Below, piece by piece: positions 22,272-61,234 of a stretch of DNA of 64,000 nt. The position numbers and the translations under genes are program-made. The notes below the pieces were generated by a model. That model searched no databases. It saw only the letters and a program-made list of their open reading frames with translations, and was not told the DNA's origin. Every line of letters begins with the position of its first letter. Position 1 is the first letter of the stretch. This DNA is from a virus (taxonomy: Duplodnaviria > Caudoviricetes), in IMG/VR virus record IMGVR_UViG_3300036971_000130; one strand, 5' to 3'.

Positions 22272-22697
22272 ATGAACCACATCGACGAGGGCCTGAAGAT
22301 CCTCGATGCGATCGAAGCTTCAGACACCGCCAAGCGGGCGTTCTGTCTGCACCCGCTTGCCCAGGGCGATGCGGAGATCGGGCAGTTCGATCCTCACCTG
22401 GCGTCGTCGCCCGAAGTCCTGGTGGCGACCATCGAGTACCGCAACGTGGCGAACAGGTACCTGTCACATCACCACGGCGTTGCTGGTCTCCGGCCGATCC
22501 CGTCGCCGCTGGCGGTCGTCAACGACATGCTGATCGCTGACAAGGTCCAGAACCGCAAGGACTTCCTGACGAACCCGGCGATCACCGGCGAGAAGTGGGA
22601 TCGGCTGAACAGCTACTTCCTGGCCTGGCTGGAAGCTCTCGGCGTCTCCGACAACGAGTACGTCTGGCTCTGCGAGATCGCCTCCGACCATCCATGA
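22272..22697 (+). CDS. Phage-type hypothetical protein (NHIDEGL...MLIADKVQNRKDF)
   Basis: Recognisable conserved motifs; stop codon lies inside the motif (DHP*). Confidence 0.65.
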   Translation: MNHIDEGLKILDAIEASDTAKRAFCLHPLAQGDAEIGQFDPHLASSPEVLVATIEYRNVANRYLSHHHGVAGLRPIPSPLAVVNDMLIADKVQNRKDFLTNPAITGEKWDRLNSYFLAWLEALGVSDNEYVWLCEIASDHP

Positions 22698-22704
22698 TGG
22701 TCCC

Positions 22705-23634
22705 ATGACGAACTTCACCATCTCGCACCGGCGTTCCGTCGGGTTCACCGACTCCGATGGTAAGCCCGTCTTCCACACCGGGTACGTGCTGGGGTCCAGC
22801 GGCCTGCTGTCGGTCTACTACTACCCATCGAACGGGACAGCAGTGGCCGAACGAGGGATCGGGAAAACCACGGCCGGACACCCGCTCGGGGCCGACCGTC
22901 GACCGATGACGCTCAGCGGTGACTACGTCGACTACCAGGACTTCCTCGTGGAGATCGGGACGGACAACGTCACCTTCGCCAACAGGGCGGTGGTCGAACT
23001 CTCCGACGGAACCTGCCGGTACGTGCCTCACAGCCGCCCGGACCTGATCGACCGGACCTCGTACCCGACACCCACCGACTTCGATGTCGAGGTCGACATC
23101 GACCCGTTCGACTTCGAGCAGCCGTGGCAGTGCTACGTCGGCAGCGAAGCGTGGCTCAATCACGACATCGTCCGAGGCTTCCACATCGGCCGTGGCCGAG
23201 CGACCGTCGAACGTCCGTGGCCCGGCGAGAAGGTGCCGGTCTTCTCGATCTACGAGTTCCCCGGCGGCGAACGTCGGCTCGTCGACTTCCAGTCCGAGAT
23301 CCTGCCGATCTCCGCCTGCCTCGGCTACGAGGACGACGACTACTTCAACGATGTCGACCCGCCGGAGTCACGGCTCTGCCTCGGAGGCCGTGTCCTCGAC
23401 ACCGTGCCGTACAAGACCGCCAACCTCGACCAGTACGGGGCGTGGCTGTTCGAGACGAACCGTGTCACCGACGCCGATGGGGAAATCCTCGACCGTTGGA
23501 CGGACGGCCCGATGGTCTACCACCGGTTCCGGCCGAAGCCCGAGAAGGAGATCGACCGGGCGGTCTGGATCACCGACATCTTCGCCAACCGCTGGTCCTA
23601 CGAGAACGGAGAGATCAGGTTCGACGAAGGCTGA
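22705..23634 (+). CDS. Hypothetical protein
   Basis: Motif at 22690, ATG at +5. Confidence 0.7.
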   Translation: MTNFTISHRRSVGFTDSDGKPVFHTGYVLGSSGLLSVYYYPSNGTAVAERGIGKTTAGHPLGADRRPMTLSGDYVDYQDFLVEIGTDNVTFANRAVVELSDGTCRYVPHSRPDLIDRTSYPTPTDFDVEVDIDPFDFEQPWQCYVGSEAWLNHDIVRGFHIGRGRATVERPWPGEKVPVFSIYEFPGGERRLVDFQSEILPISACLGYEDDDYFNDVDPPESRLCLGGRVLDTVPYKTANLDQYGAWLFETNRVTDADGEILDRWTDGPMVYHRFRPKPEKEIDRAVWITDIFANRWSYENGEIRFDEG

Positions 23635-24163
23635 ACGCCGACATGTCGTAGACCCGAAGGAAGCCATCGGATTCCACGCCGTACCCCTCGTAGGTCACGT
23701 CCTCGTTGTAGTAGTCCTCCCACGCCATCTCGGCCTCCCAGTAGTCCGTGTCGTCGTAGTCCTCGATGTACGGCTTGGTGTCGTACCCTCCGGTCTCGAA
23801 GGTGAAGTCCCCGAAGGTCACCGTGTCATACCCGATCTCGACGCCGTTCACACCACCACCGAAGGTGACGAGACGATCCTTGTCGAAGGTGGGGTTGGAC
23901 GTGATGCCGAAGCCGTACGGAGTCACGGCGATGAACCCGGAGTCGCAGTTGATCGGGGTCGAGTCGTCGTTGTTCGTGGCGAACATGGTCTTGGTCCGGC
24001 ACGCCTTCGGCAGACGAGCCACCACCGAGTCGTCGAACCGGAAGGTCTCCTGGTCGCCTGCGACGGTCAGAAACCGTTCGAGGTCAGCTTCCTCGGTGAT
24101 GAGGTCCGTCGGGTCGCCCACGAGGTAGACGCCGGACGGGAAGGTGATGTCGGTCTCGTTCAT
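23615..24163 (-). CDS. GDP(CY)...DSG family protein (paralog 1)
   Basis: FPSGVYLVGDP...CDSGFIAVTP. Confidence 0.7.
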   Translation of the reverse strand: MNETDITFPSGVYLVGDPTDLITEEADLERFLTVAGDQETFRFDDSVVARLPKACRTKTMFATNNDDSTPINCDSGFIAVTPYGFGITSNPTFDKDRLVTFGGGVNGVEIGYDTVTFGDFTFETGGYDTKPYIEDYDDTDYWEAEMAWEDYYNEDVTYEGYGVESDGFLRVYDMSAFSLRRT

Positions 24164-24187
24164 GGGATCATCATGGGTGGCAACGGC

Positions 24188-25124
24188 TCAGAGGACCAGC
24201 TTGGCTTGGAACTGCTGGATCTTCTTCGTGAGTTCCGGCGTGACCTCGCCAGCCGTCAAGGCGGCGATGATCTCGTCGGCCTCGCTCAGCCAGTACGAGT
24301 CGTCTCGCCATCCGACCGGCCACGATTCGTAGTGATCGGTGTCCCATGACCAGTGGATGGAGCGGTCACGGGAAGACTGCTCGTCTTCGATGTGGCCGAA
24401 GTCACGAGCGCACCCTCCGCCGGGGCCGACCGCATCACACCTCGAACGCTTCCGAGGGTCCGGAGAGCCGCTCAACATGGCGTCAGCGATGGCGGCGTTC
24501 ATCTCTCCCTTGGTCATCCCGATATCAGAGAGTTTCGGAGCTTCGATGAGGTCGAGCGTCCCAGGGGAACAGTCGCCTTGGAAACAGGTGACAGTGGTTT
24601 CGTCGCCGCAGCGGGGGCATTGCACAGGATCATCCGATCGTTCGTTGGTGGGTTCTGAGGCGGGCCAACCCGACAGGTCAGCCCCGGTCCGCCCAGAGGT
24701 CCGGCCGGTTCAGGAAGTCGGAGAACTCCTGCCGGAGCGTGTCCGTGAGACCGTCTTCGAGCAGTTCTTCGATCAGCATGTCGACATCACGGAGAAGTTC
24801 CTCGTCGTCCTTCAGGCCGATCGGCCAGTACATGTAGTGGTCACCGGGGCGGGCCGAATGCTTGTTGTTGTCGTACCACGGGGTGTCGAGATGCCCGGCG
24901 GAACGGTCACACCTGACTCCGTCGTAACGGTGGTTGCAGAGGTGTCGCCGGTCCCGAACGTCAGGGTCTCGGTCAGCCATCGCAGCGTCGTACTCCGCAC
25001 GGGTGCGACCGGCATCCTCAGGGGTCGGAGCGGGAACGAGCATGGGCATCAGCGTGCCCGGCACGCACTCACCTTCGACGCAGATGTGGGTGATCTGCTT
25101 GTTGCAGCGTGGGCAGTTCTTCAT
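24188..25124 (-). CDS. Two tandem zinc-finger paralogs (24188..24625, 24678..25124)
   Basis: CPRC..TxxCxxGxCxPGTL...C..C.R..GH...WP.G in both. Confidence 0.7.
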
Positions 25125-28100
25125 CGGTCCTGTCCTCCGAACATGGTCTCCATCGTCTCCCGAGGGTTGATGTCGGCCTCGTAGAACAGCGTTCCACCGG
25201 CGAGGAACGCTTCGAGCATCCCTCCGCCGAGCGACCACGACATGTACTCCCGGTCCGCAGCAGCCCGCTCCTTCTCCCGTTCACGCAGGACAGCGATCTC
25301 ATCCGTCAGAGCGTTGATCTTCCTGTGTGCCTTGGCGAGTTCACGAAGCAGGTCTTCCTCCCGAGGATTGAACTCGTCGTCCCACGGATCGTCACACCAG
25401 CCGTAGAAGCTCACCCGAACACCGTCCGAACGAAGTCCTCGCCTTCGGCGGTCAGGGTCGGATTCCCGTAGATCCCGTCCTTGCACTCGATCCGGCGACC
25501 GTCTTCGGAGCCGGGGACGACGAGCCCGTCGCTGTCGAAGACGAGAACGGCGATGATGTCCTGAGCCGAGATGCGGCGCTCTCTTGCGATGTCGATGATC
25601 GTCTTCATGGCACCATCATGGGTGGCCCGGTGGCGATCACCGTCTCCGGTTGAGCGAACAGGATGAAGTCCTCGACCTTCGATGCGTCGTCGACGATCAC
25701 CGTCTTAACCGAGAAGTCGGACATGGTGACGAGACCGATGGACGCAGACCGGAGATCCATGACCTCCACGTCGGCTGCGACGAAGTACCCACGAGTCACC
25801 GTGGCACCCGACAGGTCGATCGTGTCGAGGTTGCGTCCTTCGGTTCGGAAGTCGCCGGTCCCATGGAACTCGACGAAGTCTTCGAGGATCTGAAGCTTCG
25901 TCGGCGTAGCACCGAAGTTGCCCCACCATCGCTGCTTCGGTCGAACCGGGAAACACATGGCGTCGAACGCCTCGTGGTTGTAGTCGGTGCCGGAGACCAC
26001 GTACCGTTCGGCGGTGATACCGAACGCCCGGATCTTGCCGATCTGCTTGCGGTCCAGGAGCACCCGTCGTGCGGTCACCCGGAAGAACTGGGCAAAGAGC
26101 ACCTTCGCTCCACGGATGTCGAGCGTGTCAGCGTGCACGTCAAAGATGTAGCCGGACCGGTAGGTGCCGCTCAACTTCACGTTCTGGCCGTAGAGGTGCG
26201 AGGTCACCGAACGGCTGTTCTTCGAGATGAGGTGGATGTTCTCGCCACCGATCGGGAGGATGTCGAAGGTCATCAGAACGGAAGCGGGGAGAGGGTGATG
26301 GTGCGGTCGGCGTAGAACGGGTGGTCGGCTCCGGGCATGCGGAGGGTAGCTGCTCCCTCGAACTCGCACGCTGCGGCCCACTGCGGATCGCAGAGGCCGA
26401 TCTTGCCCGCCCACCAGACGAACATGTGGGCTTGGACTCGGTCCTTCGGCTCCTTCGACAGCATGTGGTGGTGACCTTCGGTCTTCGACGGCAGGAGGTC
26501 GAATTCGTACTCCATGAAGACGAGTGACCCAGGTCCGGTGAGGCGGATGTTGACGTGCATGTAGGCGGCGAACAGCGCCACCTCACGGTCGGTCAGCGTG
26601 GCGTCGAGGCCGGTGACCTTGATCTCGCCGTAGAATTCGTCGAGTTCGACCGCCACATCGTCCATGTCCAGCATCAGGAACGCATGCGGCGAACGCTGGA
26701 TGCTGTCGATGGTGTAGTCCTTGCCAGGGGTGTAGGCGATCGACGAGAGGACGTTCGGGACGCCCGTGAACATGCCCTCGTCGAGTTCGAACTCGGTGTA
26801 GTCGTCGCTCGGCGTTTCCATCTCGGAGCGCAGCGGTCGGTTCAGCGGAAGGGGGCGCAGGATGTCGTGCATGGTCACATCATGGGTGGTCGACGATGTC
26901 GGCCTCGCAGGAGAGCGTGAGCCAGGTGGCGAACCCGGTGTAGACGATACACCACACTTTCATCAGCAGGTCACCGTCCCAGGTGAAAGTGACGAGGATG
27001 GTCAGGATCTCCATGACGGAGAGGTTGATCATCGCCACCCCATACGCGACCCTCTCCCCGAAGTAGACCACGATCGTGCGGAAGACGATCCCGACACCGT
27101 AGGTGACCATCAGGAGGCTGAATGCGATCGCCTCACCGGACACGAGTTGGTAGGACCCAATCCCGACGAGGGTGGCACCGATGAGTTCCAGGAGGACCAT
27201 CATGGTCTTCGTCATCCGGACCTCATCGGGAAGTTCGGTCGACATCAACCGAACACCGCAGCGATGCGAGCCTGCTCGACGAGGCGGGTGTACGCCTCGG
27301 CGGAGAGGACCACGCCGATCCCGTGGTCGCTGCGACCAACGGTGACGGTACCGACGTGGATGCCGAGGTCGACGAGAGCGTCGGTGCTGTCGTCGATCGC
27401 CTTCTTGCAGGCGTCGACGTTGCGGGCACGACGGGCACGGGATTCCTCGTACTCAGCCTGACGCTGCTCGGCTTCGGCCTTCTCCTTGGCCTTGGAGTCC
27501 TTGGCGGCGACATGGATCTCGGTGATCGTGTCGAGGTTCATCTCGACGCCGACCTCGTGGTGACGGGGACGCTCGACGCTGACCCCGACGGCGATCATCT
27601 TCACGTCGTCGCCGTAGCTGTCGGTGGGAACGGCGAAGACCTGGCCGGGCTTCGAGAGGGGAAGCTGGGCGTGGCGGTGGGTATCCGACAGGCTTCTGAC
27701 GAAGTCCCTCATCTCCGAGCCGGAGACACCGAGGGCGGTCTGGGCGGCGACCTTCGTCGGGGTGGCGACGTAGAGCCGGACCTGGGAGATGTGCGATCGG
27801 CAGCCGAGGGCCTTGGCGATCTGGTAGTTGCAGACGATGACGGTGTGAACGGTGTTGGTCATGTCGTCAACATGGGTGGCACATCCGGGTGTGTCCAACC
27901 ATCAGCAGATGAAGCCACGTCGCTTCAGGAACTCGATCATCTCGGGATCGAGAGGAACGTCTCCGACCGGGACAGCAACCAACGAACGGTAGAACTCGTA
28001 CATCTCGTCAACCGTCTCCGTCACATGGTCGAGGACGGCAAGGCCAGCAGCGAGGACTGCGTAACCCACACGGTTCGCCGTGATCGGATCTGACCGCTTC

Positions 28101-29073: not shown

Positions 29074-29439
29074 ATGAAGCTCAACGTCTACTACTCGGCC
29101 GAGCAGAACAACCGGATCTCGTTCACCGCCTACGAGGACTACGAGTGCGTGAACTCGTCGAGGCCGTGGCCGTCGATCGTCGGGATCGCTGACGCCACGA
29201 AGCTGATGAAGCCGTCCGACGGACTCAACCAGCGCAACGTCTGGACTCTCGTCGACGCTCCCGTTCGTGGGGCGTACAAGGTCACCTACTGCTACCAGCA
29301 CGCTGATGGCTCCGTGGACCTCGTGGTTCTCGACTCGGACCATCTCGGTGACCTGATCGTGGCGATTCGCTTCGACGATCAGGCAGCCTTCGACCTCGAC
29401 TTCGACGAGCCGCTCTGGCTTCTCACCGGCCATCCATGA
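29074..29439 (+). CDS. Hypothetical protein
   Basis: Stop codon inside the motif (GHP*). Confidence 0.6.
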   Translation: MKLNVYYSAEQNNRISFTAYEDYECVNSSRPWPSIVGIADATKLMKPSDGLNQRNVWTLVDAPVRGAYKVTYCYQHADGSVDLVVLDSDHLGDLIVAIRFDDQAAFDLDFDEPLWLLTGHP

Positions 29440-29447
29440 TGGCGGAC

Positions 29448-30152
29448 ATGGACATCTACGACGACGAGTTCCTGGCCGAACTGCTGCGCCCACACTGGAC
29501 TGATCACACCCATGATGGAAAGGTCATGCACGAACAGATCCCATCCCACGTCGACATCGGCATCGCCAGGCTCGCAGCAGCACCAGACGATGAGTTCATC
29601 GTCGGTCGAACCAGCGACGGCGAGGTTCGGTGGGATGTGACCCAGGAGCAACACCTCTGCCTGTTCGGCCCTGCACGTTCCGGTCTGACCACCGCAAGGA
29701 TCGCCGTCACAGCGAATGCGGTCGCCCGAGGGTGGGACATCATCTCGTTGGAGACCAGCGAACCGGCATGGCGGGCGATCGAGGGCACCTTCGACCATCT
29801 CGACGACATCCGGTTCCAGCGGGCAGCGGTCGTGAACCTGCTCCGCAAGGCCGAGACCCGTGGAACGCTCGTCGTCGTCGATGATGCAGCAGAGATCGCC
29901 GGGGAACTCGTCGAGAGCCTCACGGAATCCGACAGATCGGACATTCACCTCCTTCTGGTCTCGAACACCACCCCGAAGATCGCCACCGAGCTACCCGACA
30001 GCGCCAGATGCGTTGTCGGGTCCACCCAGACGTTCGCCAATCGGGCGCTGAGGCGTCCTGTGCGCTATGGGCGGCTTCCCAGGGGCCGATGCATCTTCGA
30101 GACCGCTGACGGGCGTCAGAGGCTCGCACAGGTCGGTTTCGTGACCGGCTGA
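29448..30152 (+). CDS. Degenerate FtsK/SpoIIIE-like P-loop domain
   Basis: HLCLFGPARSGLTT (Lys lost), LVVVDD, LPRGRCIF. Confidence 0.6.
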   Translation: MDIYDDEFLAELLRPHWTDHTHDGKVMHEQIPSHVDIGIARLAAAPDDEFIVGRTSDGEVRWDVTQEQHLCLFGPARSGLTTARIAVTANAVARGWDIISLETSEPAWRAIEGTFDHLDDIRFQRAAVVNLLRKAETRGTLVVVDDAAEIAGELVESLTESDRSDIHLLLVSNTTPKIATELPDSARCVVGSTQTFANRALRRPVRYGRLPRGRCIFETADGRQRLAQVGFVTG

Positions 30153-30197: not shown

Positions 30198-32207
30198 ATG
30201 CACAACATCGAAGTCATCGTCGGAGACAAGGTCTGCGGAGTCGACATCGACCGTCCGTACGAGTTCCTTCTCATGCTTCGTGGTCACGGGATCGTCGCCA
30301 CGATGGTCGAAGAACAGGATGTTCAGGCGACCGTCGAGATCGTGAGCCTCAAAGGCGGGCACTTCAGCCGTCAGATCGCATCGACGAAGATGGATCATCC
30401 CCGTCGTTCGATTGCCAAGGTCACGGCGAAGTCGAACGGACCGGTCACCGTCTACCACATCATCGCCCTCGAAGACGAGATCGACGAAGCGGTGGCCGAA
30501 GTCGAGGACGAGATCGAGAACGGGAACGTCCGGATCGGAGAGAGGATCATCTCCGGTCGGATCAAGACGGAGCAGCACGAGCACCGCTACGAGGACGTGA
30601 CCATCGAGCGCATCTACACGGTCGCTGCCGACCCCAGCGGTGAGATCCACGATGTCACCTACACCCCGGCCATCAACATCGGAGAACTCCGCATCCAGGA
30701 GACCCCCTCCCATGTCGACGGGCTCATCACCGTGACCATCACCGAAGAAGCTCTCCGGAGCGTCGACGAGACCCTTGGACGCCTCTACCTTCGCCATCCA
30801 TGATGGCTGTATGAGCACTGTCACCATCCAAACCCTCCCCTCCGTTCTCGGTCAGGCGATCGCCATGGGGGACACCCTCGACGTGAGCGGCGCAGACCTC
30901 ACCGGAGCCGACTTCTCGGAACTCGATCTCACCGGGGCCAACTTCTCGGGATGCAAGCTCGGGATCGACTACCACGCTTCTGGCCTCAGCACGCACGAGA
31001 TCGCCTCCCTGATCCGGGAGCATCGGATCTTCGTCAACGACCGGCCGATCGACTCCATCGAGTTCGGTAGGGGCACGTCCTACCTGATCTCAGGCAACCG
31101 TCGGATGACGGCCCTCTACGACCACAGGCTCAGGGACGCCACCGGGCTTCAGATCACCCCGACGGCCGATGACGCCAAGACCATCTCCACCATGAAGGAC
31201 AGCAGACGATGAGCTTCGCCGTTGGTGACTGCGTCACCCATCCGAGTTCGTTCACCATGTTCATCGTCGTCGGCTCCGATGACGATGCCACCTACGTCGT
31301 GACCTGGATCGGCGGTTCGGTCAGGTCGTTGCCGACGAAGGAGTGCCGTGCGGTGCTCGACGGCTACTACCCGACCGAGAGAGGGGTGGAGTTCCACAGC
31401 ACTCAGGTGAAGAACATCCCGCTCTGCCGGGTGACCTTCGAGGACACCATCCAAGCCCGTCAGGTCGAGCGGATCAACTTCAGCAGCGTCGTCTGTGCAG
31501 GCGGGGTCGAGTCCTTCGCAGACGATGTCACAGAGACCCCACACATCAGGGTGGATGCCCTGGTCCCGAACGTGAAGCGTTGGGTTCCGCCGGAGCATGT
31601 CGACGTTGTCGGGAAGTTCGTCATGGACGAGCACGGCACGATCCTGAAGGTCGAACGTCAGGTTGGCCTCTACGTCGAAGGACAGGGCGCTGTCGGACCT
31701 GTCACCGCCTACAACTGGACTCGGACGCAGGTCAAGGAGCAGATCGCCGCCGACGGCACCCCGGTCTGGCGCAACGACCCGACGACGGAGCAGCCTCATC
31801 CGGATGAGATCCTCACCGCTCTCGTCTTTGGGAAGCTGTTGGTGTGGGTCGACTCACGATGGGTCGACGTTTCCAGGACCCACTTCGGCGTCACCAGCTT
31901 CAGTGACACCGCCCTGTTCGCCGTTCGGAACGAGGACCGTGGACCCAACCTCGAACGGCTCGTCGAACGCATCACCAGGGGGAGCGTCTACGTCTACCAT
32001 TCGAGGGACGACTACAAGGCTTCCAGGAAGTCCCCCGACCGTCAGGTGACCGGCGTCTCGAAGTTCTCCGAAGACGAGTACCACCTTCACTTCCGGGGGA
32101 ACACGTACTACGACTTCCATCAGACCCGGAGGTTCTACGGCCACATCGTGATCGAGCCGTCGAAGTCGGAGATGAAGTGGTACGAGAATCTCAGCGATTC
32201 CCGCTGA
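30198..32207 (+). CDS. Three hypothetical genes: 30198..30803; 30811..31212 (short pentapeptide repeat); 31209..32207 (family G)
   Basis: ADLTG-ADFSE-LDLTG-ANFSG; motif at 30796. Confidence 0.65.
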
Positions 32208-34160: not shown

Positions 34161-37100
34161 AGAAGTACGTGGTCCGGACTCCCGGCAGAAGCGACATCGC
34201 TCAGTTCATCGCTCCGACGACCAGGATCGTCCCGTGTCCCGGACGGGACCTCGTGATCCACGGCTACCTGTTCGAGCGAGAGGACGGAAAAGCGGTCTTC
34301 GTCTTCCCCCACAACGTGGTGGCGGTCGCATGAACGACGTGTTCTACGACCAGGTGATGCGCTCGATCGCCAACCTCTCCCTCGCCTCGATGCGGGTTCT
34401 CCGGATCGTGTCCGGAAGTCACCTGGCGACCCCACAGGGCGATCTCCGGGCGGCGCTCGAAGCCGTCGAGACCGAACTGGACACGATCGTCGAGTTCTGC
34501 GGGATCAGGGGATCGGAGTCCGACGAGTTCTACGCCATGTTCCACGAGGACAACCTCGTGATCGTCGTCGGTGTCCTCGTCGAGACGATGCTTCTGGTCC
34601 ACCAGTGCGATCTCGTCCCTCAGTGCGAGAAGCACTCCACGTACCGCCACGACAAGCAACGACTCGGCGTCGAGATCAAGCTCGTCCGGAGCGTCATCGC
34701 CTCCTACCGACGGTTCTACCGCCTGAGCAGCCCATGATCTACGTCGGGATCATCACCATCACCACCTTCGTCATCGTCGGCGTGCTCGTGCGCCAGTCGG
34801 TTCTCCGGTGGCGTCGGCCGGAGAACCACCAGGTCTCCCTGACCATCCATCGCCCAGAGCCTCCGGTCTGGTATGACCCTCTCGACATCTCGATCCCCGG
34901 AGCCGACGACCTCAACCTCGACATCGTCGGAGCCAGGATCGAGGGGTGGTCCTGTGACGGCAACGTCTTCAGCTTCCGGCTGATCCACGGCGACGGCTGG
35001 TACACGTCCTACGATGGGGACGACACCAACTACGTTCACCTCGGGTCCGTCGACATCCGTGCTGGTGTCCCCACCGGGTACTGTCAGCACGCAGCGGAGA
35101 CCCTCAACGACTTCTCCGACGGTCGTCCCCTCCAACTCGTCAGGTCGCACAACGGCCTTCTCACCCTCACCGACGAAGCGTTCCACAACGTCTGCTTCGC
35201 AGCCTGAAAGGACACATCATGGGCGTATCGCCATCAGTCACCATCGGTGTCGGGATCGACTTCGGGTCGTCCGATTTCGGTTTCGGTACCTGGATTCCGA
35301 GCAACCTCCGAGAAGCCATCATCGAACACAACGACGTTGAAGCTGTCGTTGCCATGTGCCTCGACAATGGCGACGTGCCAAGCATCGACGACCAGATCGG
35401 TTGGAGTGAGCGCCGGGCCATCTTCGACGAGTTCGGTGTGACCTTCCGGGTGTACGGAACAGACGGCTACATGGGCGACGTTCTCATGGTCACCGACACC
35501 ATGTCCACATCCTATGACTACGAGCCGATGGGGTTGGACCCGAAGCCCACCGAAGACACCGAGGGGTGCAGGTCTGCGGCATCGGTGCTCTCGGGTCGAC
35601 CGTCCACATCGAATGCGACTTCCTGCTGCTCGACGAGGACGGGAAGAAGATCGGCAACACCAGGGTCAAGAGGTTCTACGACATGGTCGACATCGAAGCT
35701 CCGACGGAGATCGTCGAGAAGGTCGACCAGATGAACGACACGAGGGTCGAAGCGTGAGCACCGCCTACGATCTGAACGCTGCGTCGTCCGAAGCGATCGG
35801 GCTCGTCCGGTCGATGAGGGAGGGCCAGACCGACATGCAGATCGCCTTGGAGTTGTCCGACCTGATCGCATCGTTCCCCGAGGCTCTCACCGAGTCCATC
35901 GGGAGCGGCGAGTTCGAACCCCAGTCCTCTCCGTTCGAGAAGGCGATCCTGAACCTGACCATCACGATCGGCGGGTTGCTCGAACTCGAACTCGGAGGGG
36001 TCACACCAGCCCCGGTCGACCTCGATGCCATCGAATCGTGGGGCTCCTACCTCCTGTCGCTCATCGAGCCGTACCAGGACGCAGACGATCTCTCGGTGAT
36101 CCCCGAGGACGAGATGGTCGTCATCCGACACATCACGCTGAAGCTCATCCGGCTCGGCCTTGCATTCCTCTGAAGGAACCATGAGAACCAGAATCGTCAT
36201 CATCATCGCTCTGCTGCCGCTCGCCCTCGGCCTCGTCTTCGTCTACAAGGCGACCACCGAAGGCAAGAAGTCGGCCGACTTCGTCAAGATCCAACAGGTC
36301 GAGAAGGTCGTGTTCACCAGTCACGAAGACGGCAAGGCCACCTTCGAGACCTCCGGTGGAGCGAAGTGCTCGGCCGACTACGAGATCAACAGGAAGGTCG
36401 TCTTCTCGAACGAGGTCTGTGACCGGGACGCTTCGATCAAGCTCGGGTCCTACAACGCCGTGTTCAAGGTGAACGGGAATCTCCAAGCGATCTCCATTGC
36501 CGTGTTGTTCCTCGGCGCAGCCGTGACAGCGTTGTCGGCTCGGCTGCTGATCGAGGACAGGAACCAGATGTGCGAGTTCTACATGGTGTCGGTGCTCGTT
36601 CCTGGTTTCCTTCTGTTCTGCTTCCTCGTCTTCCCGAGCATTGTGGCAGGCCACAGCAGACCTCAGGAGATGACTCGCTACGAGATCAACTACTCCGAGT
36701 TCAAGATCAGGAACGACGCTGAAGTCGTCGGATTCGAGAACGGCATCCTCACCGCCCGCCGTGGGGATGAGACCTGTCGGGTCTGGGTTGACCCGTATGT
36801 GCGGAGTGACCTGGCCGCTGTGAACGGAACGGACTGCTCGTTCCCGATCAACCCGACGGTCGTGGTCGTCCGCTGACGGTTGGACAGCCGTCGAGAGGCC
36901 ACTCATGTTGATGGCATGACCAACACCAAGAACGCCGGAACCGAGACCACCAAGAGCGGGTGCATCACCTCGATCATCAACCTCGGAGTCCGCTTCGTCG
37001 TGGCCGTCGCTCTCGCCACCTACTTCGGCCAGTCCCTCGACAGCAACGTGAAGCCGGTGACCCTCGTCGTCACCATCGTCCTCACCTGGTTCTCCACGAT

Positions 37101-37466: not shown

Positions 37467-38102
37467 ATGCTGACCATCGAGGTCCGCCCCGGCGAGGGAG
37501 GCGAAGACGCAGAGGCGTTCGCTTCCGAACTCGTCACAACCATCACGTCCATCGTCCGCCGTCTCGGCGGTGACAGCACCACCGAGACTGATGCCGCACG
37601 CACCACCACCATCTCCGTTCGAGATGAACTCGAACTCGACTGGCTCGCAGGTGTCCACCGCATCCAGCGCATCCCGAAGAACGACCGCCGAGGCCGACGC
37701 CACACGTCGACCGCCACCGTGAACGTCCTCGGGGAAGTCCACGTTGCCGAAGTCGACCTGACCTCGGTGCGCTACGAGATGTTTTCCGGTTCGGGACCAG
37801 GAGGCCAGCACCGGAACAAGTCCCAGAACTGCGTGCGAGCCATCCACCCGTCCGGTGTCACCGCAACATCGACCGAGCACCGCTCCCAGTTCCAGAACCA
37901 GAAGGCAGCGACCGCAGAACTCGTCAGACGGCTACAGGAGCAGTCAGAGTCCGATGCCGCTGACGCCGTGAACAGTCAGCGCAACATCGCTGCTGGACGA
38001 GAAGCGAAGACCTGGACATGGAACACCCAGAGGTCTGAGGTGGTCGCCCATCACCTCGGACGAAAGTGGCCGCTCGGGCGGTTCTCGAAGGGTCAGGTCT
38101 GA
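37467..38102 (+). CDS. Class I peptide chain release factor homologue lacking domain 1 (PrfH-like architecture)
   Basis: EVRPGEGGEDA, GVHRIQRIP...GRRHTSTATV, GSGPGGQHRNK, RSQFQN. Confidence 0.9.
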   Translation: MLTIEVRPGEGGEDAEAFASELVTTITSIVRRLGGDSTTETDAARTTTISVRDELELDWLAGVHRIQRIPKNDRRGRRHTSTATVNVLGEVHVAEVDLTSVRYEMFSGSGPGGQHRNKSQNCVRAIHPSGVTATSTEHRSQFQNQKAATAELVRRLQEQSESDAADAVNSQRNIAAGREAKTWTWNTQRSEVVAHHLGRKWPLGRFSKGQV

Positions 38103-46477: not shown

Positions 46478-47002
46478 TCAGTCATCCCCGTCGGCACCGC
46501 AGGTGTGGCAGACTTCTTCTTCGGGCTCGACTTCGGGGTCCGTGTCGATACGGATGTGCCCGAGCACGATGTACCCGCCATCACGCATGCACCTGATGTC
46601 CTCGTCGAAGGTCACGAAATCATGCCCTTCGATCGGTCCTTCGACCGGGACCAGGCCGATCATCCCGGAGTCCACCGGGTACTCGTTGCCGTCGTCGCCG
46701 TAGTAGCGACCGTCGCCGTGGACCGTGTGGACGCCGACAGCGTGCCCGTCGCCGTGCGGTGCGACGATCAGGTTTTCGTCCTTGGTCGACTCACAGAAGT
46801 CGCTCCACTCACCGTCCTCGATCACGTAGCAGGGGTCACCGATGACGTAGGTGCCCGCCGGGAGCGTCACAACCCCCTCGTCGTCGATGATGCCGTATCG
46901 GGACGGGACAGGCAGATCGACCACTCCGTCTCGGTAGCTGTTGGGTGCGAACCGAGTGGAGTTGCTGGTTCCGAGGTCACGCTCACGCATCTGGTTGCTC
47001 AT
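46478..47002 (-). CDS. GDPCY...DSG family protein (paralog 2)
   Basis: LPAGTYVIGDPCY...GDGRY...VDSGMIGLVP. Confidence 0.75.
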   Translation of the reverse strand: MSNQMRERDLGTSNSTRFAPNSYRDGVVDLPVPSRYGIIDDEGVVTLPAGTYVIGDPCYVIEDGEWSDFCESTKDENLIVAPHGDGHAVGVHTVHGDGRYYGDDGNEYPVDSGMIGLVPVEGPIEGHDFVTFDEDIRCMRDGGYIVLGHIRIDTDPEVEPEEEVCHTCGADGDD

Positions 47003-47011
47003 GGCCTCATC

Positions 47012-47236
47012 CTAGCCGACGATGCCGAACTGGAATCCCAGAGCGGCGAGACCGGCGATGACCGCCACACCGAGCACCAGCGGTCCGATCACGATGTCGA
47101 GCACCTTCCCGAGCACCGTGGTGCCGACGATGGCGATGAGCAAGATGATGCCGAAGGTCGCCGGGTCGATCGGCCAGGTCTGCTCGATGTGCTGGTAGAA
47201 CTCACCGATGGAGGGCAGGTCGATCTTCTCACTCAT
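47012..47236 (-). CDS. Small membrane protein
   Basis: TACAAT-N6-ATG; 2 TM. Confidence 0.6.
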   Translation of the reverse strand: MSEKIDLPSIGEFYQHIEQTWPIDPATFGIILLIAIVGTTVLGKVLDIVIGPLVLGVAVIAGLAALGFQFGIVG

Positions 47237-47290: not shown

Positions 47291-48544
47291 TCACGAGAAC
47301 ACGGCCAGGTAGGTCAGCTTGATCCGGTCGAGGTTCCACTGGATCATCTCGTTGTTCATCACACCGCAGGTCCCGCCCTTGACGTTGATCGAGTCGTACT
47401 TCGCTCGCTCCCTTTCCGAGTGGGCGAGCATCCGATCCCGAGGCCGCATCTCCCGTCCCATCGCCACATCGGCAACGAACATCGAGACCTCGTTGGAGCC
47501 TCGGCCACCGCCGCCCCAGTACCCGTCGGAGTAGTTGAGCGACTTCGTCGACTGGTCCGAGAAGTACACCCCGTCACCGAACATGCGTCCAGCGATGTGG
47601 ATACCGTCGCTGTTCGTCGGGACGATGAGGCCACGGTGCATCAGCGAGATCAGGTTGCCGGTTCCCGTTCCATGCCAGAGGCGCTTGACGTTGCCGACTC
47701 GGTCCGATTCGACCTTGATCCGAGCGGCCAGCGCAGCGTCAGCTTCGGTGATCTCGTAGAGGGCAACGAGCTTCCGCCCGGAACTGGTGTGGATCGAGTT
47801 CACTGTCGAGGTGAACATCTCCTGGATCGACCGGAACTCCGGAGACGACGGGTCGACAGTCGTCAGCGAGTAGCGGAAGATCCGCTTCTTCGGCTCATCG
47901 TCGTTCGCTGCTGCTGCGGCGGCGATCGCAACAGCGCCGTCGAGAGCGTCCAGGAACTCGACCTGCTTCGCCAGGAAGGTCTGCTCGACGAAGTTCTTCT
48001 CCCACCCTCGGGTCCTCCCGATGTCCTGCGGGACGATGGTCATGTAGCGGCCGATGTCGGCGTTCGTCGGGGCCTTCGCCTTGCTGATCTTGTCCAGCAG
48101 CGCCCTCGCTTCGAGGATGGAAGCGGCACCGACAGGACCGAGTGCGGTCTCCACCGAGCCGCTCTTGGCGACGGTGATCTTGCCGCCGGAAGCGTCCTCG
48201 ATCATGTGTCGGTTGGCGTCACACCAAGAGTTGATCCGACGGATCAGATCGGCGTTCTGGGTCGTCGGAAGTTGCGTCACGGCGTAGTCCGAGAGGACAG
48301 AGTTCGAGGTGATCTTGGAGCCGGAGGAACCGTCTCCGGTCGAATCGAAGACCTGGTACCCCTTCTTCTTCTTCGAGGCGATCGCACGCTCGTAACCGGA
48401 GCGTCCGGTGCCCTCCGAAGACGACTGTCCGTTGGCTCCGACACGCCCCCATCGCTTCTTCACGATGTTGCCGTCGAGGGTCACTTCGTAGAACTTGTTG
48501 TTGTTGGAGTTCGGGTCCGAGAGGACCAGCATGGTGGTTTCCAT
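47291..48544 (-). CDS. WGR-domain poly(ADP-ribose) polymerase-like protein
   Basis: NNKFY...WGRVG...KKKKGY; LWHGT, GRMFGDGVYFSD..KSLNY, NNEMI (H-Y-E triad). Confidence 0.9.
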   Translation of the reverse strand: METTMLVLSDPNSNNNKFYEVTLDGNIVKKRWGRVGANGQSSSEGTGRSGYERAIASKKKKGYQVFDSTGDGSSGSKITSNSVLSDYAVTQLPTTQNADLIRRINSWCDANRHMIEDASGGKITVAKSGSVETALGPVGAASILEARALLDKISKAKAPTNADIGRYMTIVPQDIGRTRGWEKNFVEQTFLAKQVEFLDALDGAVAIAAAAAANDDEPKKRIFRYSLTTVDPSSPEFRSIQEMFTSTVNSIHTSSGRKLVALYEITEADAALAARIKVESDRVGNVKRLWHGTGTGNLISLMHRGLIVPTNSDGIHIAGRMFGDGVYFSDQSTKSLNYSDGYWGGGGRGSNEVSMFVADVAMGREMRPRDRMLAHSERERAKYDSINVKGGTCGVMNNEMIQWNLDRIKLTYLAVFS

Positions 48545-48927: not shown

Positions 48928-49002
48928 GTAGAGAACATGGGTGCGGTTTTCGCCGTGTCCAACCAGGACCAAAAACATGCGTTTACCTGGGGATATGCCT
49001 TT

Positions 49003-49640
49003 CATGTCATTTCATGTCATTTCTTGCACAGAGGTTTCGGACGTCCCTGGAGATTTTGTTTTTGCCGTTGATCCTGGCCCCTCTCAGTCAGTTTCGTGAA
49101 CTTTCAGTCCTTCTCCTGCCACGACGTGACCTTCTGATCTCGTGACGTTTCATGTCATTTCATTGCCAGAGGTTTCGGATGTCCTGGGAAAACGTCGAAG
49201 TAGCCTTGATCTCGGCCCCGCTCAGTACATCTCGTGTCATTTCATGCTTTGGCCCGATGGGGACGTTCGGCAATATGGGTGGGACACAACCGCCTTCAGC
49301 CTGTGGATAACTGCCTTCAGCCTGTGGATAAGTCCGTTTTGGGGCCTCAGATGGGGCTCGAAACGCCCTGTTGGAGCCCGGTTTTCTGGGTTCTGGCCGG
49401 AGACGGCCGAAAACCGAGGCCAAGCCGCTGACCTGCGAAAACACTAGAGACATAGAAAGGTAGAAGGAGGGGGTAGTAGTAGTAGATGACTGTTGTTTCC
49501 ATACATATGTCTAATAATTACCCCCCCCCTCTCTCTCTGTATACCCCTACCGTTTTCAACTCAGACTGGTTCCCGACGACCGGACTCTCCGACTTCCGAG
49601 ACAGCACGGTTCCGTAACTGCCGCCAATAGTTATCCACAG
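49003..49640. other. Origin-like island: ~80-bp direct repeats, three DnaA boxes, AT-rich element copy 2
   Basis: Repeats ~49013-49090 and ~49151-49229; TGTGGATAA at 49302 and 49323, TTATCCACA at 49631; AT-rich 49441-49550 with (TAG)4. Confidence 0.65.
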
Positions 49641-49663
49641 GCAGAAGAAGGAGCCACGCCAAC

Positions 49664-50152: not shown

Positions 50153-50218
50153 CGGCACCACCCATGATGGTGTAGACATCCGCCTCGACCGAGGCAACCA
50201 TCGACCCAGGAGTCACCC

Positions 50219-51001: not shown

Positions 51002-51487
51002 GTGACTTCGCTCGCTGAGGTCACCGGACCGAAGCTGCTCGTGACCGGTTCGAGGGCCTTCGCCGGTGAGCACCGTCAGGGGCGTGATCTGCTGCTCACC
51101 CGAGACGGCGTCGTCGCTGACGAGTTGCTCTCGATGATCTTCGACGGGCATCCCCAGATGACCCTGGTCCACGATGGCTGTCCGAAGGGCGCTGATGCGT
51201 GGGCGAAGGACTGGGCGTACGAGACCGGCAACGAACAGGTCGCTGTCCCTGCGAAGTGGCAGCGGCCTGACGGTTCCACCGATCGTGGTGCCGGGTTCAA
51301 GCGGAACGCCGAGATGGTGTCGAGCTTGCAGCCCGGCGACTTCGTGGTTGCGATGTGGGACTGGACCTCGAACGGCACGAACCACTGCGTGGGCGAAGCG
51401 GTGAAGCGAGACCAGAAGCTCGTCGCTGCCGGAGGTCCGGACAACGCTCTGCGGATCTTGTACATCCGGGGTGTGCCCCACCCATGA
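51002..51487 (+). CDS. SLOG-family (YspA/DUF2493-like) protein
   Basis: LLVTGSR...LVHDGCPKGAD...AGFKRNAEMV...SNGT. Confidence 0.8.
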   Translation: MTSLAEVTGPKLLVTGSRAFAGEHRQGRDLLLTRDGVVADELLSMIFDGHPQMTLVHDGCPKGADAWAKDWAYETGNEQVAVPAKWQRPDGSTDRGAGFKRNAEMVSSLQPGDFVVAMWDWTSNGTNHCVGEAVKRDQKLVAAGGPDNALRILYIRGVPHP

Positions 51488-51494
51488 TCTCGTC

Positions 51495-52013
51495 ATGCGC
51501 CGGAACCTGATCTACCTCGACATCGACGGTGTCCTGAACCCGGACGGCCAGAAGATCCTCCGCCACTGGCCGGACGCCCGGAAGTTCGACTCTCGGGTCG
51601 CAGCAACCGGGCCTGATCGAATCCTGCATCCGGCGTCGAAGATCAAGAGCTTCCGGCTGTGGCGCTCCCCGGCGCTGGTGGGTGCGCTGCTCGGCCTCGA
51701 CGCCGAGATCGTGTGGGCGACGACCTGGACGGAGTACCTCGACACGGTGATCGCCCCGAACTACGGCTTCCCGCTCGGCCTCGACCGGGTGGACTTCCAC
51801 GGTCCGACTCCGGCGGTCGGGTCCGGGAAGCTCCCGCTGGTCTCCGAGCATCTCGGTGCAGCGGGTGACGTTCGGGCGGTCTGGATCGACGACCTGCTGT
51901 CGAAGGACGAGTCCGAGTGGGCTGACGCCAACGGCGTCCTGGCGATCGCTACCACACCCTCGATCGGTCTCATCCAGGCTCACATCGAGTCGATCCGGGA
52001 ATGGCTCTCGTAG
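51495..52013 (+). CDS. HAD-superfamily (Swiss-army-knife type) phosphatase
   Basis: LDIDGVLN, VWATTW, K, WIDD. Confidence 0.85.
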   Translation: MRRNLIYLDIDGVLNPDGQKILRHWPDARKFDSRVAATGPDRILHPASKIKSFRLWRSPALVGALLGLDAEIVWATTWTEYLDTVIAPNYGFPLGLDRVDFHGPTPAVGSGKLPLVSEHLGAAGDVRAVWIDDLLSKDESEWADANGVLAIATTPSIGLIQAHIESIREWLS

Positions 52014-52185: not shown

Positions 52186-52540
52186 CGTAGATGTCGATGG
52201 TTGCCGTAACACAAGCCGTACAGGAGACGGGGACGACCAAGAGCGGTCGATTCTCGACGAGTTGGTGGATGCTCGAAACCGAGTGCCGCCACATCGTTCG
52301 ACGGCCCGTGAAGTTCATCCCCGGAGCGTCCGGCGGACGACGAGGGTGGGCACTGCTGCATCACCCGCCTGCCTCCGATGACAGCCTGCCACCTCCAACG
52401 AAGGTGAAGTGCCCCATGTGCAACGGGGACGGTTGACCGACAATCGTCTGCAAGCCGAACACCACCGACGCCTCGGACTGAAGTTGGACATGGGCGAACA
52501 CACCACCCATGATGAGTACATGGAACTTCTCAGCACCACC
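52186..52540 (+). repeat. 355-bp direct repeat, copy 1 (81-aa Zn-ribbon gene 52191..52436 plus promoter)
   Basis: Matches 53221-53575; the only mismatch I found is 52512 A / 53547 T. Confidence 0.95.
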
Positions 52541-53104: not shown

Positions 53105-53244
53105 GGAAGGTCATCCACGTCCACCAGCACAAGATCAAGAGGGGCGAACCGGCGATCATCGTCCGGACCTACAAGGGGTCCAGGCACTACACGAGGGTCG
53201 AGATCAACGGGCCGTCGGTGCGTAGATGTCGATGGTTGCCGTAA
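53101..53244 (+). pseudogene. Truncated phage protein (IHVxQH...RTYK...INGPS)
   Basis: Cut by repeat copy 2 at 53221. Confidence 0.6.
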
Positions 53245-53575
53245 CACAAGCCGTACAGGAGACGGGGACGACCAAGAGCGGTCGATTCTCGACGAGTTGG
53301 TGGATGCTCGAAACCGAGTGCCGCCACATCGTTCGACGGCCCGTGAAGTTCATCCCCGGAGCGTCCGGCGGACGACGAGGGTGGGCACTGCTGCATCACC
53401 CGCCTGCCTCCGATGACAGCCTGCCACCTCCAACGAAGGTGAAGTGCCCCATGTGCAACGGGGACGGTTGACCGACAATCGTCTGCAAGCCGAACACCAC
53501 CGACGCCTCGGACTGAAGTTGGACATGGGCGAACACACCACCCATGTTGAGTACATGGAACTTCTCAGCACCACC
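53221..53575 (+). repeat. 355-bp direct repeat, copy 2
   Basis: See copy 1; offset 1035 bp. Confidence 0.95.
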
Positions 53576-57107: not shown

Positions 57108-57878
57108 ATGACCGGCTCGAAGAAGGTTCGGTTCGCTGAACTCGAAGCACGAGGGTGGACCCGTGAGATCGCTGGTCTCTACGGGCTACGGCCCCGTTCG
57201 CACTGGTGGGAGATCGACGAAGCTCTCCGCATCGAGAAGTCAGGCCGCTGGCAACGTGATCGTGATGCGGTAGCCCGAGGTGAGACGATCGTCTTCACGA
57301 AGGCGATGCTCATTCCCCGAGGGTGGACCGACGGGTCGATCAAGACCTTCCTCGGTGAGCCCGATCATGTCGTCGACCTCCCGAAGAAGCGCAAGGCGTT
57401 CTACTGGCGTTCCGGTCGTGTCCTGCATGCCGAGGCAAGCCCGGAGTGGCAGGAGAAGGCCCAGAAGGTGCTCTCGGAGCGTCCGAAACGTTCCGCTGCG
57501 GTCCAGCAGGTGATGGACACGAAGATCGCTGCGGTGAAAGCCGCTTCGGAGGAACAGGTCGAGAGCCTGTGGATCAGGGTCCCGGCAGGGTCCACGATCA
57601 GCGGCCTCACCGAGAAGGCGATCAGGTCCCAGGTCGACTGGCTCCGAGAGAAGAAGGGCATCGACTACAACGTCTCGAAGATGACCGATGCCGACCGAGC
57701 GAAGTGGCTCCGGAACTACGTCAGGCACGAGTTGACGAACTACGACACGCTGCTCCGAGGTCTATCTGCCCGGTTCCGTGGTCAGCCTGGTGTCGTCGCC
57801 ATGTACGAGGAAGTGGTCCGGCCTCACGTCGACCGGATGGTCGAAGACGCTCTGGCTGAGTTGCCCGACCACCCATGA
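57108..57878 (+). CDS. RGWT-repeat hypothetical protein
   Basis: LEARGWT, LIPRGWT..I..FLGEPD, YVRHELTNYD; ends DHP* in the motif. Confidence 0.7.
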   Translation: MTGSKKVRFAELEARGWTREIAGLYGLRPRSHWWEIDEALRIEKSGRWQRDRDAVARGETIVFTKAMLIPRGWTDGSIKTFLGEPDHVVDLPKKRKAFYWRSGRVLHAEASPEWQEKAQKVLSERPKRSAAVQQVMDTKIAAVKAASEEQVESLWIRVPAGSTISGLTEKAIRSQVDWLREKKGIDYNVSKMTDADRAKWLRNYVRHELTNYDTLLRGLSARFRGQPGVVAMYEEVVRPHVDRMVEDALAELPDHP

Positions 57879-57928
57879 TGTGATCGGCCGATCAAGTCGA
57901 TGGTCTGACCACATCACGGGAGACACCC

Positions 57929-59189: not shown

Positions 59190-59593
59190 GTTACCAGGTC
59201 GATCTGCCAGCCGGTACCTACTACGTGGGTGACCCTGTCCACACGATCCCCGAGGATCGCTTCGATCGGTGGTTCCGGGACGCTCAACTGCACTCCGAGG
59301 TCGCATTCTCGGCGCACCGAGCGTTCGGCCAGGACTACGGCCAGGACACGTTCATGGAAGCGAAGATCGACGGGAAGCTCGCTGTCGGCGCTGAGACGAA
59401 CAGCCGGAAGCGGACCTACGTCGGCAGCAACGGCTTCTTCTTCTACATCGAGACCGGCCTACTCGGGGTCGTCCCCGTCGAGGTCGGAGTCCCCTCCGGT
59501 CTCAGTCAGGTCGTGACCTTCGAGGACGATTTCTCCTGTTCGAACGACTACGAGATCATCACGATCGGTGACATCAAGATCAGCACGATGTAG
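59186..59593 (+). CDS. GDP...(D/E)(S/T)G family protein (paralog 3)
   Basis: LPAGTYYVGDP...IETGLLGVVP. Confidence 0.7.
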   Translation: MSYQVDLPAGTYYVGDPVHTIPEDRFDRWFRDAQLHSEVAFSAHRAFGQDYGQDTFMEAKIDGKLAVGAETNSRKRTYVGSNGFFFYIETGLLGVVPVEVGVPSGLSQVVTFEDDFSCSNDYEIITIGDIKISTM

Positions 59594-59602
59594 CATGCCT
59601 CG

Positions 59603-60645
59603 ATGGTGACCGACCCGTGCTTCGCAAGGTTCTCTCCGCACTCGGATCTGCACCTCGGGGTCAGAGGCCACGACAGCCAGCGACGTGATCGACTGGTCGA
59701 CGCCGTTGCTTCGGAGGCTGCTGATGGTGGGTGGCCGGTCATCGAGGTCAACACCAGGACCACTTCGAGGTGCGAGTCTGCGCTCGGTCAGATCGAAGCG
59801 GAGATCCACCATCGCCTCATGTCGAAGCTGACTCCGTCACCGTTCCTGGTGGTGGTCTCATCGGTCACCGACCTCCTGGATCGCACGAGCCCGGCGGTGT
59901 TGGGCCAGATCGTCCGGCACGGCCACAAGGCTGGGTTCCATGTCCTGGCTGGCTTCGACGGCACGTTCAGCACCGGTGCGTCGATCATCTCGGAGGCGAT
60001 CCCGACCTGGATGCATCTCGATCCTGTACGCCACATCGAGTCGAACGAGAACCTCCGCTCGAACGAGATGGTCCTGGCTCGCACATCGAGGTTCGATGTG
60101 GTCGAAGTGTCCGTTCCTTGACAGGCCGATGAACAGGCTGTAGACAGTCGCATCCCCATTCAAGGAGTTTCTGAATGACTGACGCCACGTTCGCCGGGTG
60201 GAATGGCCTGATCGTTGCCGGAGACGACGAGCACACGATGGGTGCCGTCCATGCCGTACTCGAAGGCGAGTACGACCTCGTTCCGTTCCCGTCCAGCCGT
60301 GTCCCGAACCTCGAAGCCCTCAACGGTGAGTTCAGCCGCCGTCACGAGAAGGCCGTTGCTCGGGGAGGGAACCAGTTCAGTTCTCCCCTCGGCCGTCATC
60401 TCGTGCTGGTCGTCGACGAGAGGACCGACAAGAAGACCGACGACGAGGCCCAGGCCGTGATGACCAAGATCGCCCGTGAAGGGCGTTCGTACTGCGTCTC
60501 CTTCGTCCATCTCACTGGTGAGGAACTGCCGGTGAACCACGACCCGATGGTTGCGAAGCTCTCCGTCGGAGAGCCCACGGAGAGCCATCACACCGGCTCG
60601 TACGAGTTCGGTTCAGCGACGATCCCGCTGTCCCTCCCACTCTGA
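59603..60645 (+). CDS. Two degenerate FtsK-like domain proteins (59603..60121, 60175..60645)
   Basis: EAEIHHR..FLVVV..IVRHGHKAGFHV; EFSRR..LVLVVDE..IAREGRSY. Confidence 0.5.
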
Positions 60646-60760
60646 TCACTCGACAGCGGTTTCATCCGCTAGTCTGAGATCGAGGACCGCCCTGGCCTCG
60701 GCTTTCCGTCGGCCGAAGGAGGGGCGGTCCTCCCCTTTCAAGACGGAACAGAGGAACGCC

Positions 60761-61234
60761 ATGCAAGACATCAAGCCCAAGGACATCTCCTACCTGCGGA
60801 TGTGCCTGTCGATCGCCAACGAGTTCTCTACCTGCGGGAAGCGCCAGTACGCAGCGATCATCGTCGACCACCGTGGCACGGTCATCGCCACCGGCTACAA
60901 CGGCACGCCGTCGGGGTTCGAGCACTGCAAGGACGGCGGCTGCCCGAGGTTCTTGGAGAACACCCCGTCGGGGACGAGCTACGGGAACTGCCTCTCGGTT
61001 CACGCTGAGGTCAACGCCATCATCCGTTCGACTCCGGCGACCCGTGAACGGTCGACCCTCTACGTGAACGGCCTGCCGTGCTGGGACTGTGCGAAGGTCA
61101 TCATCGGTTCCGGCATCCCTCGGGTTGTCTGCCTCGGTGGACGTGACACCCTCGACGAGAAGTTGGTGATCGACCTGTTCGGCAGATCCGAGGTTTGGTT
61201 CCACGAGGTTCCGCCATCCATGTTGGAGGCATGA
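60761..61234 (+). CDS. dCMP deaminase (ComEB-like)
   Basis: STC.KRQ, ATGYNG, HAEVNAI, PCWDCAK. Confidence 0.92.
   Translation: MQDIKPKDISYLRMCLSIANEFSTCGKRQYAAIIVDHRGTVIATGYNGTPSGFEHCKDGGCPRFLENTPSGTSYGNCLSVHAEVNAIIRSTPATRERSTLYVNGLPCWDCAKVIIGSGIPRVVCLGGRDTLDEKLVIDLFGRSEVWFHEVPPSMLEA

Follow-up and report, generated by a model that had tools for sequence, protein, structure and literature searches.

Gene ends within a repeated word of an uncultured phage genome are most likely a by-product of leaderless promoters

Main

A stretch of 64,000 nucleotides (nt) from the IMG/VR virus record IMGVR_UViG_3300036971_000130 (Duplodnaviria; Caudoviricetes), hereafter the window, carries a short DNA word that recurs in front of genes on both strands, and at several of its copies the same word supplies the stop codon of the gene upstream, so that unrelated proteins end in His-Pro. 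Does the word mark places at which pieces of DNA were joined, or does it have another role that happens to put it at the end of neighbouring genes? An earlier note on the window had leaned towards the first answer, likening units of motif plus gene to integron cassettes, and had named selection for compaction as the fallback. Here we provide evidence that the pattern is real and non-random, and that the His-Pro-stop ends most likely follow, as an ordinary outcome, from tight packing of a genome with leaderless promoters.

Genes in the window were called with a self-made, self-trained codon model, which gave 108 proteins. The G+C content is 62%, and the genes lie on both strands in 19 strand runs within the 64 kb (18 orientation flips), the units headed by the motif comprising one to eight genes. 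Spacing is tight: across 89 co-directional junctions the median gap is 16 nt, and 28 of the junctions overlap. TGA serves as the stop codon in 96 of the 107 complete genes.

A repeated word stands at a tight distance from start codons

The string CCATGATG occurs 40 times on the two strands of the window against 2.1 occurrences expected, a number that none of 100 shuffles reached. A position weight matrix (PWM) gave the consensus CCACCCATGATGG-N3-C-ATG, in which CCACCCATGATGG, a conserved word of 13 nt used about 45 times in the 64 kb, is followed by three free bases, a C and then ATG. Among 54 candidate sites, 45 were kept; the nine that were dropped either lacked the CA[C/T] flank or lay within a gene with no start behind them. 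Every site is oriented in the same way as the gene behind it, and the ATG lies at +13 from the start of the core in 31 sites, at +14 in six, at +16 and +18 in one each, and is missing in six. A pyrimidine occupies position +12 in 36 of the 45 sites and a purine position +13 in 39. The core is a 9-bp palindrome, CCATnATGG, and the three frames of the word offer ATG-ATG, TGA and the downstream ATG; in the PWM, the letters of the TGA are equally conserved at sites without an overlapping gene. Divergent pairs of the motif also stand back to back (41132/41157 and 5330/5372). When 80-nt stretches at the 45 sites were compared with 300 random ones, no excess of hairpins was found (mean −12.30 versus −12.22 kcal/mol, p = 0.92).

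Four of the six sites without an adjacent ATG are followed, 22–57 nt downstream, by a gene with a word resembling a Shine–Dalgarno (SD) sequence (32659, 50219, 57929 and 62570). At three of these the leaders are near-equal in length: the motifs at 50162, 57873 and 62513 are separated by 56–57 nt from genes that start with ATGAAG at 50219, 57929 and 62570. Motif-led genes are often alike in their first codons (MTNT, MTNK and MTKT, and MEL in five cases; for example the starts at 27862, 36916, 1726 and 58438) while the proteins are otherwise unrelated, and these common codons may be due to what leaderless initiation favours or to copying of promoter-plus-start modules. In the literature searched, no occurrence of the 13-mer was found, shorter forms appearing only as primers among the matches listed, and the search found no paper on leaderless promoters in jumbo phages.

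Upstream genes end in the word or close to it

Six genes had been said to end in His-Pro-stop within the motif, and this is exact at 22697, 26880 (minus strand), 29439, 30803, 51487 and 57878. All six open reading frames are strongly coding (scores of 65–117) and finish with the codons CA[C/T] CCA TGA; a His-Pro C-terminus is found in these six and in no other of the 108 called proteins, and an all-against-all BLASTP gave no match among them. The two genes described as reading through the motif do so, each stopping at the next ATG plus A. The eight overlapped copies are:

22688–22707, plus strand: motif CCATCCATGATGG; its TGA (22695–22697) stops gene 22272–22697 (ending DHP-stop); next ATG at 22705.
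26870–26889, minus strand: motif CCACCCATGATGT; its TGA (26882–26880) stops gene 27215–26880 (ending DHP-stop); next ATG at 26872.
29430–29450, plus strand: motif CCATCCATGATGG; its TGA (29437–29439) stops gene 29074–29439 (ending GHP-stop); next ATG at 29448, 14 nt from the core start.
30794–30813, plus strand: motif CCATCCATGATGG; its TGA (30801–30803) stops gene 30198–30803 (ending RHP-stop); next ATG at 30811.
51478–51497, plus strand: motif CCACCCATGATCT; its TGA (51485–51487) stops the SLOG/YAcAr gene 51002–51487 (ending PHP-stop); next ATG at 51495.
57869–57881, plus strand: motif CCACCCATGATGT; its TGA (57876–57878) stops gene 57108–57878 (ending DHP-stop); next gene at 57929 behind GGGAG.
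25605–25625, minus strand: gene 26273–25605 (ending PPMMVP-stop) runs through the motif in the ATG-ATG frame; the stop is the TGA of ATGA, next start at 25608.
61214–61234, plus strand: the dCMP deaminase gene 60761–61234 (ending PPSMLEA-stop) runs through the variant motif CCATCCATGTTGG; the stop overlaps the next ATG at 61231.

One correction concerns the copy at 57873: no ATG is adjacent, and the following gene begins 56 nt further on with the ribosome site GGGAG, so that the motif at this place would drive a leadered messenger RNA (mRNA).

At 27 of the 45 sites, an upstream gene in the same direction has its end close by, and the other 18 have none. Among the 27 ends, six use the TGA of the motif and two the next ATGA; 13 lie 0–7 nt before its CCAC, which agrees with the note's estimate of about a dozen; one lies 14 nt before it; and five precede a −35-like box, GTTGGACA. 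All five sites of this last class have the box, and in all five the upstream stop lies 2–9 nt before it. The end classes are set by the promoter and not by the word, and the distances from stop to start therefore take the discrete values of −4, 7–8, about 17 and 39 nt. Among the 21 closest upstream genes, the frames are near even (7:9:5). Six of the seven upstream genes in the TGA frame use the motif TGA, and none of the five in the frame of the start enters the box. We also considered TGA as part of the upstream flank of the motif; this was rejected, as only three of the roughly 12 sites that lack a co-directional upstream gene have it.

For one of the six genes ending in His-Pro-stop (51002–51487), the only one of them with homologues, an outside annotation of a 99% identical contig gives the same end; C-termini were compared for this gene only, and the 99% twin ends in His-Pro while two homologues at 35–42% identity do not. 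Its SLOG protein had no match in the PDB. Solved structures align with the dCMP deaminase only up to residue 124–149 of 157.

The word resembles the −10 region of leaderless promoters

Read as a −10 hexamer, the CATGAT of the word has A at −11 and T at −7 and is followed by six bases and then by C(−1)A(+1)TG. CATGAT, 6 nt and ATG follow one another in 31 of the 45 sites, and the spacing is 7 nt in six; in the PWM sites, A stands at −11 in 97% and T at −7 in 95%. The −35-like box GTTGGACA, similar to TTGACA, is found 10 times where 2.6 copies are expected, and the combination GTTGGACA-N17-CAT eight times where none is expected, with a ninth copy spaced by N16. Nine sites thus have the box with a spacer of 16–17 nt before CAT and 36 have the −10-like word alone; copies with the box tend towards a weaker hexamer (CATGTT, CATAAT, CATAGT or CATGCT). 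Three examples of the two-part form are:

27872–27899, minus strand: GTTGGACA, 17 nt, CATGTT, with the end of the upstream stop 2 nt ahead of GTTGGACA.
3709–3736, minus strand: the same two-part layout.
36879–36906, plus strand: the same two-part layout.

A plain TANNNT, often TGGTAGAAT, precedes the ATG by 6–7 nt in eight other genes of the window. Six of these eight canonical promoters have the upstream stop inside the box or at most 1 nt from it: in two the TAG of the hexamer is itself the stop, in one TACAGT comes straight after a TGA, in one the upstream gene runs on to ATGA, and in two the box is abutted. The two in which the hexamer supplies the stop are:

47000–47014, minus strand: canonical leaderless promoter TAGGAT-N6-ATG; the hexamer TAG (47014–47012) is the stop of the upstream gene.
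59591–59605, plus strand: canonical leaderless promoter TAGCAT-N6-ATG; the hexamer TAG (59591–59593) is the stop of the upstream gene.

An SD word is missing from 32 of the 33 motif-led genes and present in 33 of the 75 others. As described in the passage cited, the leaderless layout of Corynebacterium sigma-A promoters has a TAnnnT −10 a few nt ahead of the point where transcription begins, which is also the start codon, and leaderless mRNAs make up 33% in Corynebacterium glutamicum (PMC3890552); a second source gives the layout likewise (PMC4633059).

A promoter fixed at the start codon would account for the gene ends

We propose the motif as the −10 region of a promoter specific to the element, supplemented in some copies by the −35-like box, from which transcription would start at the A of the ATG and give a leaderless mRNA. 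Such a promoter would be confined to about 20 nt immediately before the ATG and, being leaderless, could not move away from it. Because there is almost no spacer DNA and the promoter is fixed at the ATG, the 3′ end of the upstream gene would reach the promoter or enter it. One frame of the box contains a TGA (CCA TGA), and an upstream gene arriving there would end in His-Pro-stop; one in the ATG-ATG frame could continue to the ATGA of the next start, and one in the frame of the next start would have to terminate immediately ahead of the box. On this account, the supply of a stop codon is a by-product of packing, not a joining scar. The gene boundary follows the functional edge of the promoter and not the motif, and the fallback of the earlier note, selection for compaction, is borne out by the tight gaps, by the same behaviour of the TANNNT promoters and by the stops set by the −35-like box.

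Several points weigh against the leaderless-promoter explanation. The hexamer has C and not T at −12 (CATGAT versus TANNNT), the C being present in 97% of the PWM sites, which is unlike known sigma-A boxes. A scan for generic sigma-70 promoters gave nothing above chance (2 versus 2.5 expected), and the boxes differ from the E. coli consensus. From the sequence, we infer both the start of transcription at the ATG and the existence of a polymerase or sigma factor that reads the motif. All 33 motif-led genes start with ATG, a figure that is partly circular because motif-linked starts were favoured by a bonus when starts were chosen. In four of the eight overlapped sites and in only one of the 37 others (p = 0.002; copies at 22688, 29430, 30794, 61214 and 19460), the base preceding the core is T in place of C, giving CCAT-CCATG; since CAT and CAC are both His codons, the enrichment is not accounted for by coding, and compaction leaves it unexplained. 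Finally, the right junction of a recent duplication, a 355-bp repeat, falls exactly at the CCACC of the motif at 52540.

Structural variants and promoter-mediated exchange

The last two of these points bear on a different role for the dispersed copies. In T4-type phages, recombination at copies of promoter-early stem-loop (PeSL) regulatory cassettes has been shown, according to the passages cited from Arbiol et al. 2010 (PMC2839356) and Comeau et al. 2014 (PMC4122927). By analogy, the promoter copies of the window could serve as short homologies for the insertion, deletion and swapping of the genes between them, and the abutting units would then be in part the product of such exchanges; we regard this as unlikely, though the best placed of the rivals. 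Parts of the window are carried by nine wastewater DNA runs, with no RNA run among the carriers listed, and contigs from four of these match it over kilobases with zero differences. Two variant events were seen:

22253–25282, no strand assigned: a 3,030-bp segment with five genes and part of a sixth, missing in contigs of all four (4/4) other wastewater runs.
52186–52540 (copy A) and 53221–53575 (copy B), plus strand: a 355-bp direct repeat with one mismatch, in the −10 hexamer.

One of the two events has one end in the motif, which covers only about 1% of the window, and this is the right junction of the repeat. Its left junction lies off the motif, between a ribosome site and an ATG. The repeat contains an 81-codon open reading frame with CPMCNGDG, a two-part promoter and the first seven codons of the next gene (MELLSTT), and copy A places a second promoter and these seven codons ahead of gene 52553, 33 nt before the motif of that gene. 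The 3,030-bp deletion has a 6-nt microhomology, ACGCAG, at its junction, and neither end is at a motif: one lies in the spacer before a motif-less gene and the other inside a gene. Three further apparent joints were set aside as matches to repeats or other organisms, those at 24728→41125 and 27472→36221 for having only 21 letters on one side and that at 29194→35707 for 31 foreign letters in between.

The enrichment of CCAT-CCATG at overlapped junctions would also fit exchange at the motif, as would the region's many genes of unknown function (90 of the 108 proteins without a Pfam hit), a trait of PeSL regions in the part of PMC2839356 that describes them. Against it, paralogues differ in their start signals: in three families the motif is carried by one of three, one of six and one of two members, so the units of duplication are not bounded by the motif. 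The stem-loop component is missing as well, hairpins at the motif being no stronger than elsewhere, and viable breakpoints are expected between genes anyway, where the intergenic DNA is almost all promoter. The duplication that ends in the motif and the CCAT-CCATG enrichment leave a PeSL-like role a small probability. In its boldest form, which we hold just as tentatively, about 45 promoter copies per 64 kb would be a recombination grid, a hairpin-less and leaderless counterpart of PeSLs in a huge phage of actinobacterial type that shuffles accessory genes, with misaligned exchange leaving CCAT-CCATG. If this were true, a single word of 13 nt would provide a transcription start, the context of a translation start, an upstream stop codon and a recombination site.

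Translational coupling and cassette joining

A second possibility is that the word acts on the mRNA, as an SD substitute or as a site of termination and reinitiation at which ribosomes that terminate on the UGA would begin again on the AUG 8 nt downstream, which would make the stop functional. The motif does contain ATGA and TGATG, the classic stop–start overlaps, which are widespread in the window (the 28 overlapping junctions noted above); its spacing to the ATG is as tight as that of a ribosome site, and the genes behind it are nearly all without SD words. We nevertheless consider this improbable, and slightly more so than exchange at the promoter copies. Six of the 45 sites have no nearby ATG, four of them standing ahead of SD-led genes 22–57 nt off, and 18 have no co-directional gene end that could feed ribosomes. 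By eye, the word shows no evident complementarity to the anti-SD sequence. A translation signal also makes no sense of the −35-like box at its fixed 17-nt spacer (eight copies against none expected).

The weakest rival, that the motif is the recombination site of integron-like cassettes with a dedicated recombinase, draws on the layout alone, with stops in or right before a repeated site, and on the palindromic core, and is close to refuted, with very little probability left to it: the gene boundary follows the promoter edge and ordinary TANNNT promoters behave alike, the motif stands 5′ of genes, its distance to the ATG being fixed, units of one to eight genes are spread over both strands in 19 runs with divergent motifs back to back, paralogues occur without the motif, the one indel seen between samples lies off it, and, as the earlier note had already remarked, neither an integrase nor an attC-like hairpin is present, the 108 window proteins having given no recombinase or integrase Pfam family and the motif sites no excess of hairpins.

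Relatives and gene content of the element

The window is read as part of a very large phage or phage-like element, and the style of its promoters suggests an actinobacterial-type host. An adjacent gene pair matches the rIIA and rIIB phage families (E values of 7e-30 and 2.5e-39), and no Pfam match at E ≤ 0.001 was found for 90 of the 108 called proteins. Further products are a PARP-like protein, a release-factor-like protein, the dCMP deaminase and HD-domain proteins. In a set of 5.8 billion proteins (E ≤ 1e-10), the rIIA-like protein had only its self-match, the single source being one contig of 233,542 bp, and it had no relative in IMG/VR. Among phage records, a megablast with 20 kb of the window found nothing, and the PARP-like protein matched 14 distant loci, none with the motif. 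The motif pattern gave single hits in IMG/VR (9), metagenome contigs (18) and genome contigs (13); the fetched loci were not enriched in the core word, with at most three copies per locus and 0.0–0.3 per kb in loci longer than 5 kb versus 0.63 per kb in the window. The searches of phage records, IMG/VR and the metagenome and genome contig collections gave no related genome.

Other features of the window are as follows:

37467–38102: a protein of 211 residues with PCRF and RF-1 domains (E values of 1e-14 and 6e-17), a shortened, element-encoded peptide-chain release factor.
47291–48544, minus strand: a protein with WGR and PARP catalytic domains; the nearest phage matches are from Stenotrophomonas and Xanthomonas jumbo phages (38% identity).
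18799–19434 and 30811–31212: two pentapeptide-repeat proteins, the latter directly after a His-Pro-stop junction.
63219–63998: a protein with an HD or Cas3-HD-like domain, cut off by the end of the window.
5769–7114, 17861–18514, 48928–49663 and 39216–39706: stretches of 0.5–1.3 kb in which no gene was called convincingly; in two of the four, G+C is lower (0.585).

Neither an Rfam family nor a tRNA gene was found in the window, these gene-poor stretches included.

Significance

The leaderless-promoter explanation would account for six unrelated proteins that end in His-Pro as a side effect of promoter placement, and such an ending should not be taken as a protein signal or as a sign of a mobile cassette. 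It also describes an extreme of packing with leaderless mRNAs, in which the promoter would be the whole intergenic region and, in eight cases, coding as well. For the annotation of similar uncultured elements, the word would pinpoint gene starts and the ends of upstream genes. Should the recombination reading prove true, promoter-mediated gene shuffling, the idea behind PeSLs, would reach a very different group of phages and hosts.

Comparison with known systems

Integron cassettes carry at the 3′ end an attC hairpin formed by imperfect inverted repeats, are handled by an IntI-type tyrosine recombinase together with attI, lie in one orientation and are mostly promoterless. The likeness to the window is that the stop codon of an upstream gene can fall in the repeated boundary site; the window differs in having no attC-type hairpin, no integrase, mixed orientation and a promoter-like site on the 5′ side.

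The PeSLs of T4-type phages, in the sections of the two reports cited above that describe them, come closer: about 50 copies of a repeated promoter motif stand between an upstream stop and the next start, mostly before genes of unknown function in a large phage, and the element described here has rIIA- and rIIB-like genes and one duplication junction in its motif. According to the same sections, PeSLs have a stem-loop terminator, an AT-rich tract and an SD site, whereas the sites of the window have no hairpin and no leader, and an excess of terminators was not found (seven terminator-like sites versus 7.6 expected in 20 kb). PeSLs are likewise described with sigma-70-like −35 and −10 boxes; in the window, GTTGGACA is found at nine sites and 36 have the −10-like word alone. 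Indels and replacements that break at the motif when related genomes are compared, and mini-circles running from motif to motif, also belong to the PeSL type.

Actinobacterial leaderless sigma-A promoters, as described in the cited passages, share with the motif a box that ends 6 nt before the ATG, the A and T at −11 and −7, the missing SD sequence and the ATG start, and canonical TANNNT examples occur in the same window at the same spacing. The motif differs in its CATGAT with C at −12, set inside a 13-nt word with about 45 uses per 64 kb, and is known here from its letters. Finally, in promoters that overlap the end of an upstream gene in compact genomes, the box likewise encodes the last codons and the stop of the neighbour; what sets the window apart is that eight copies of one word do so, giving a recurrent His-Pro C-terminus.

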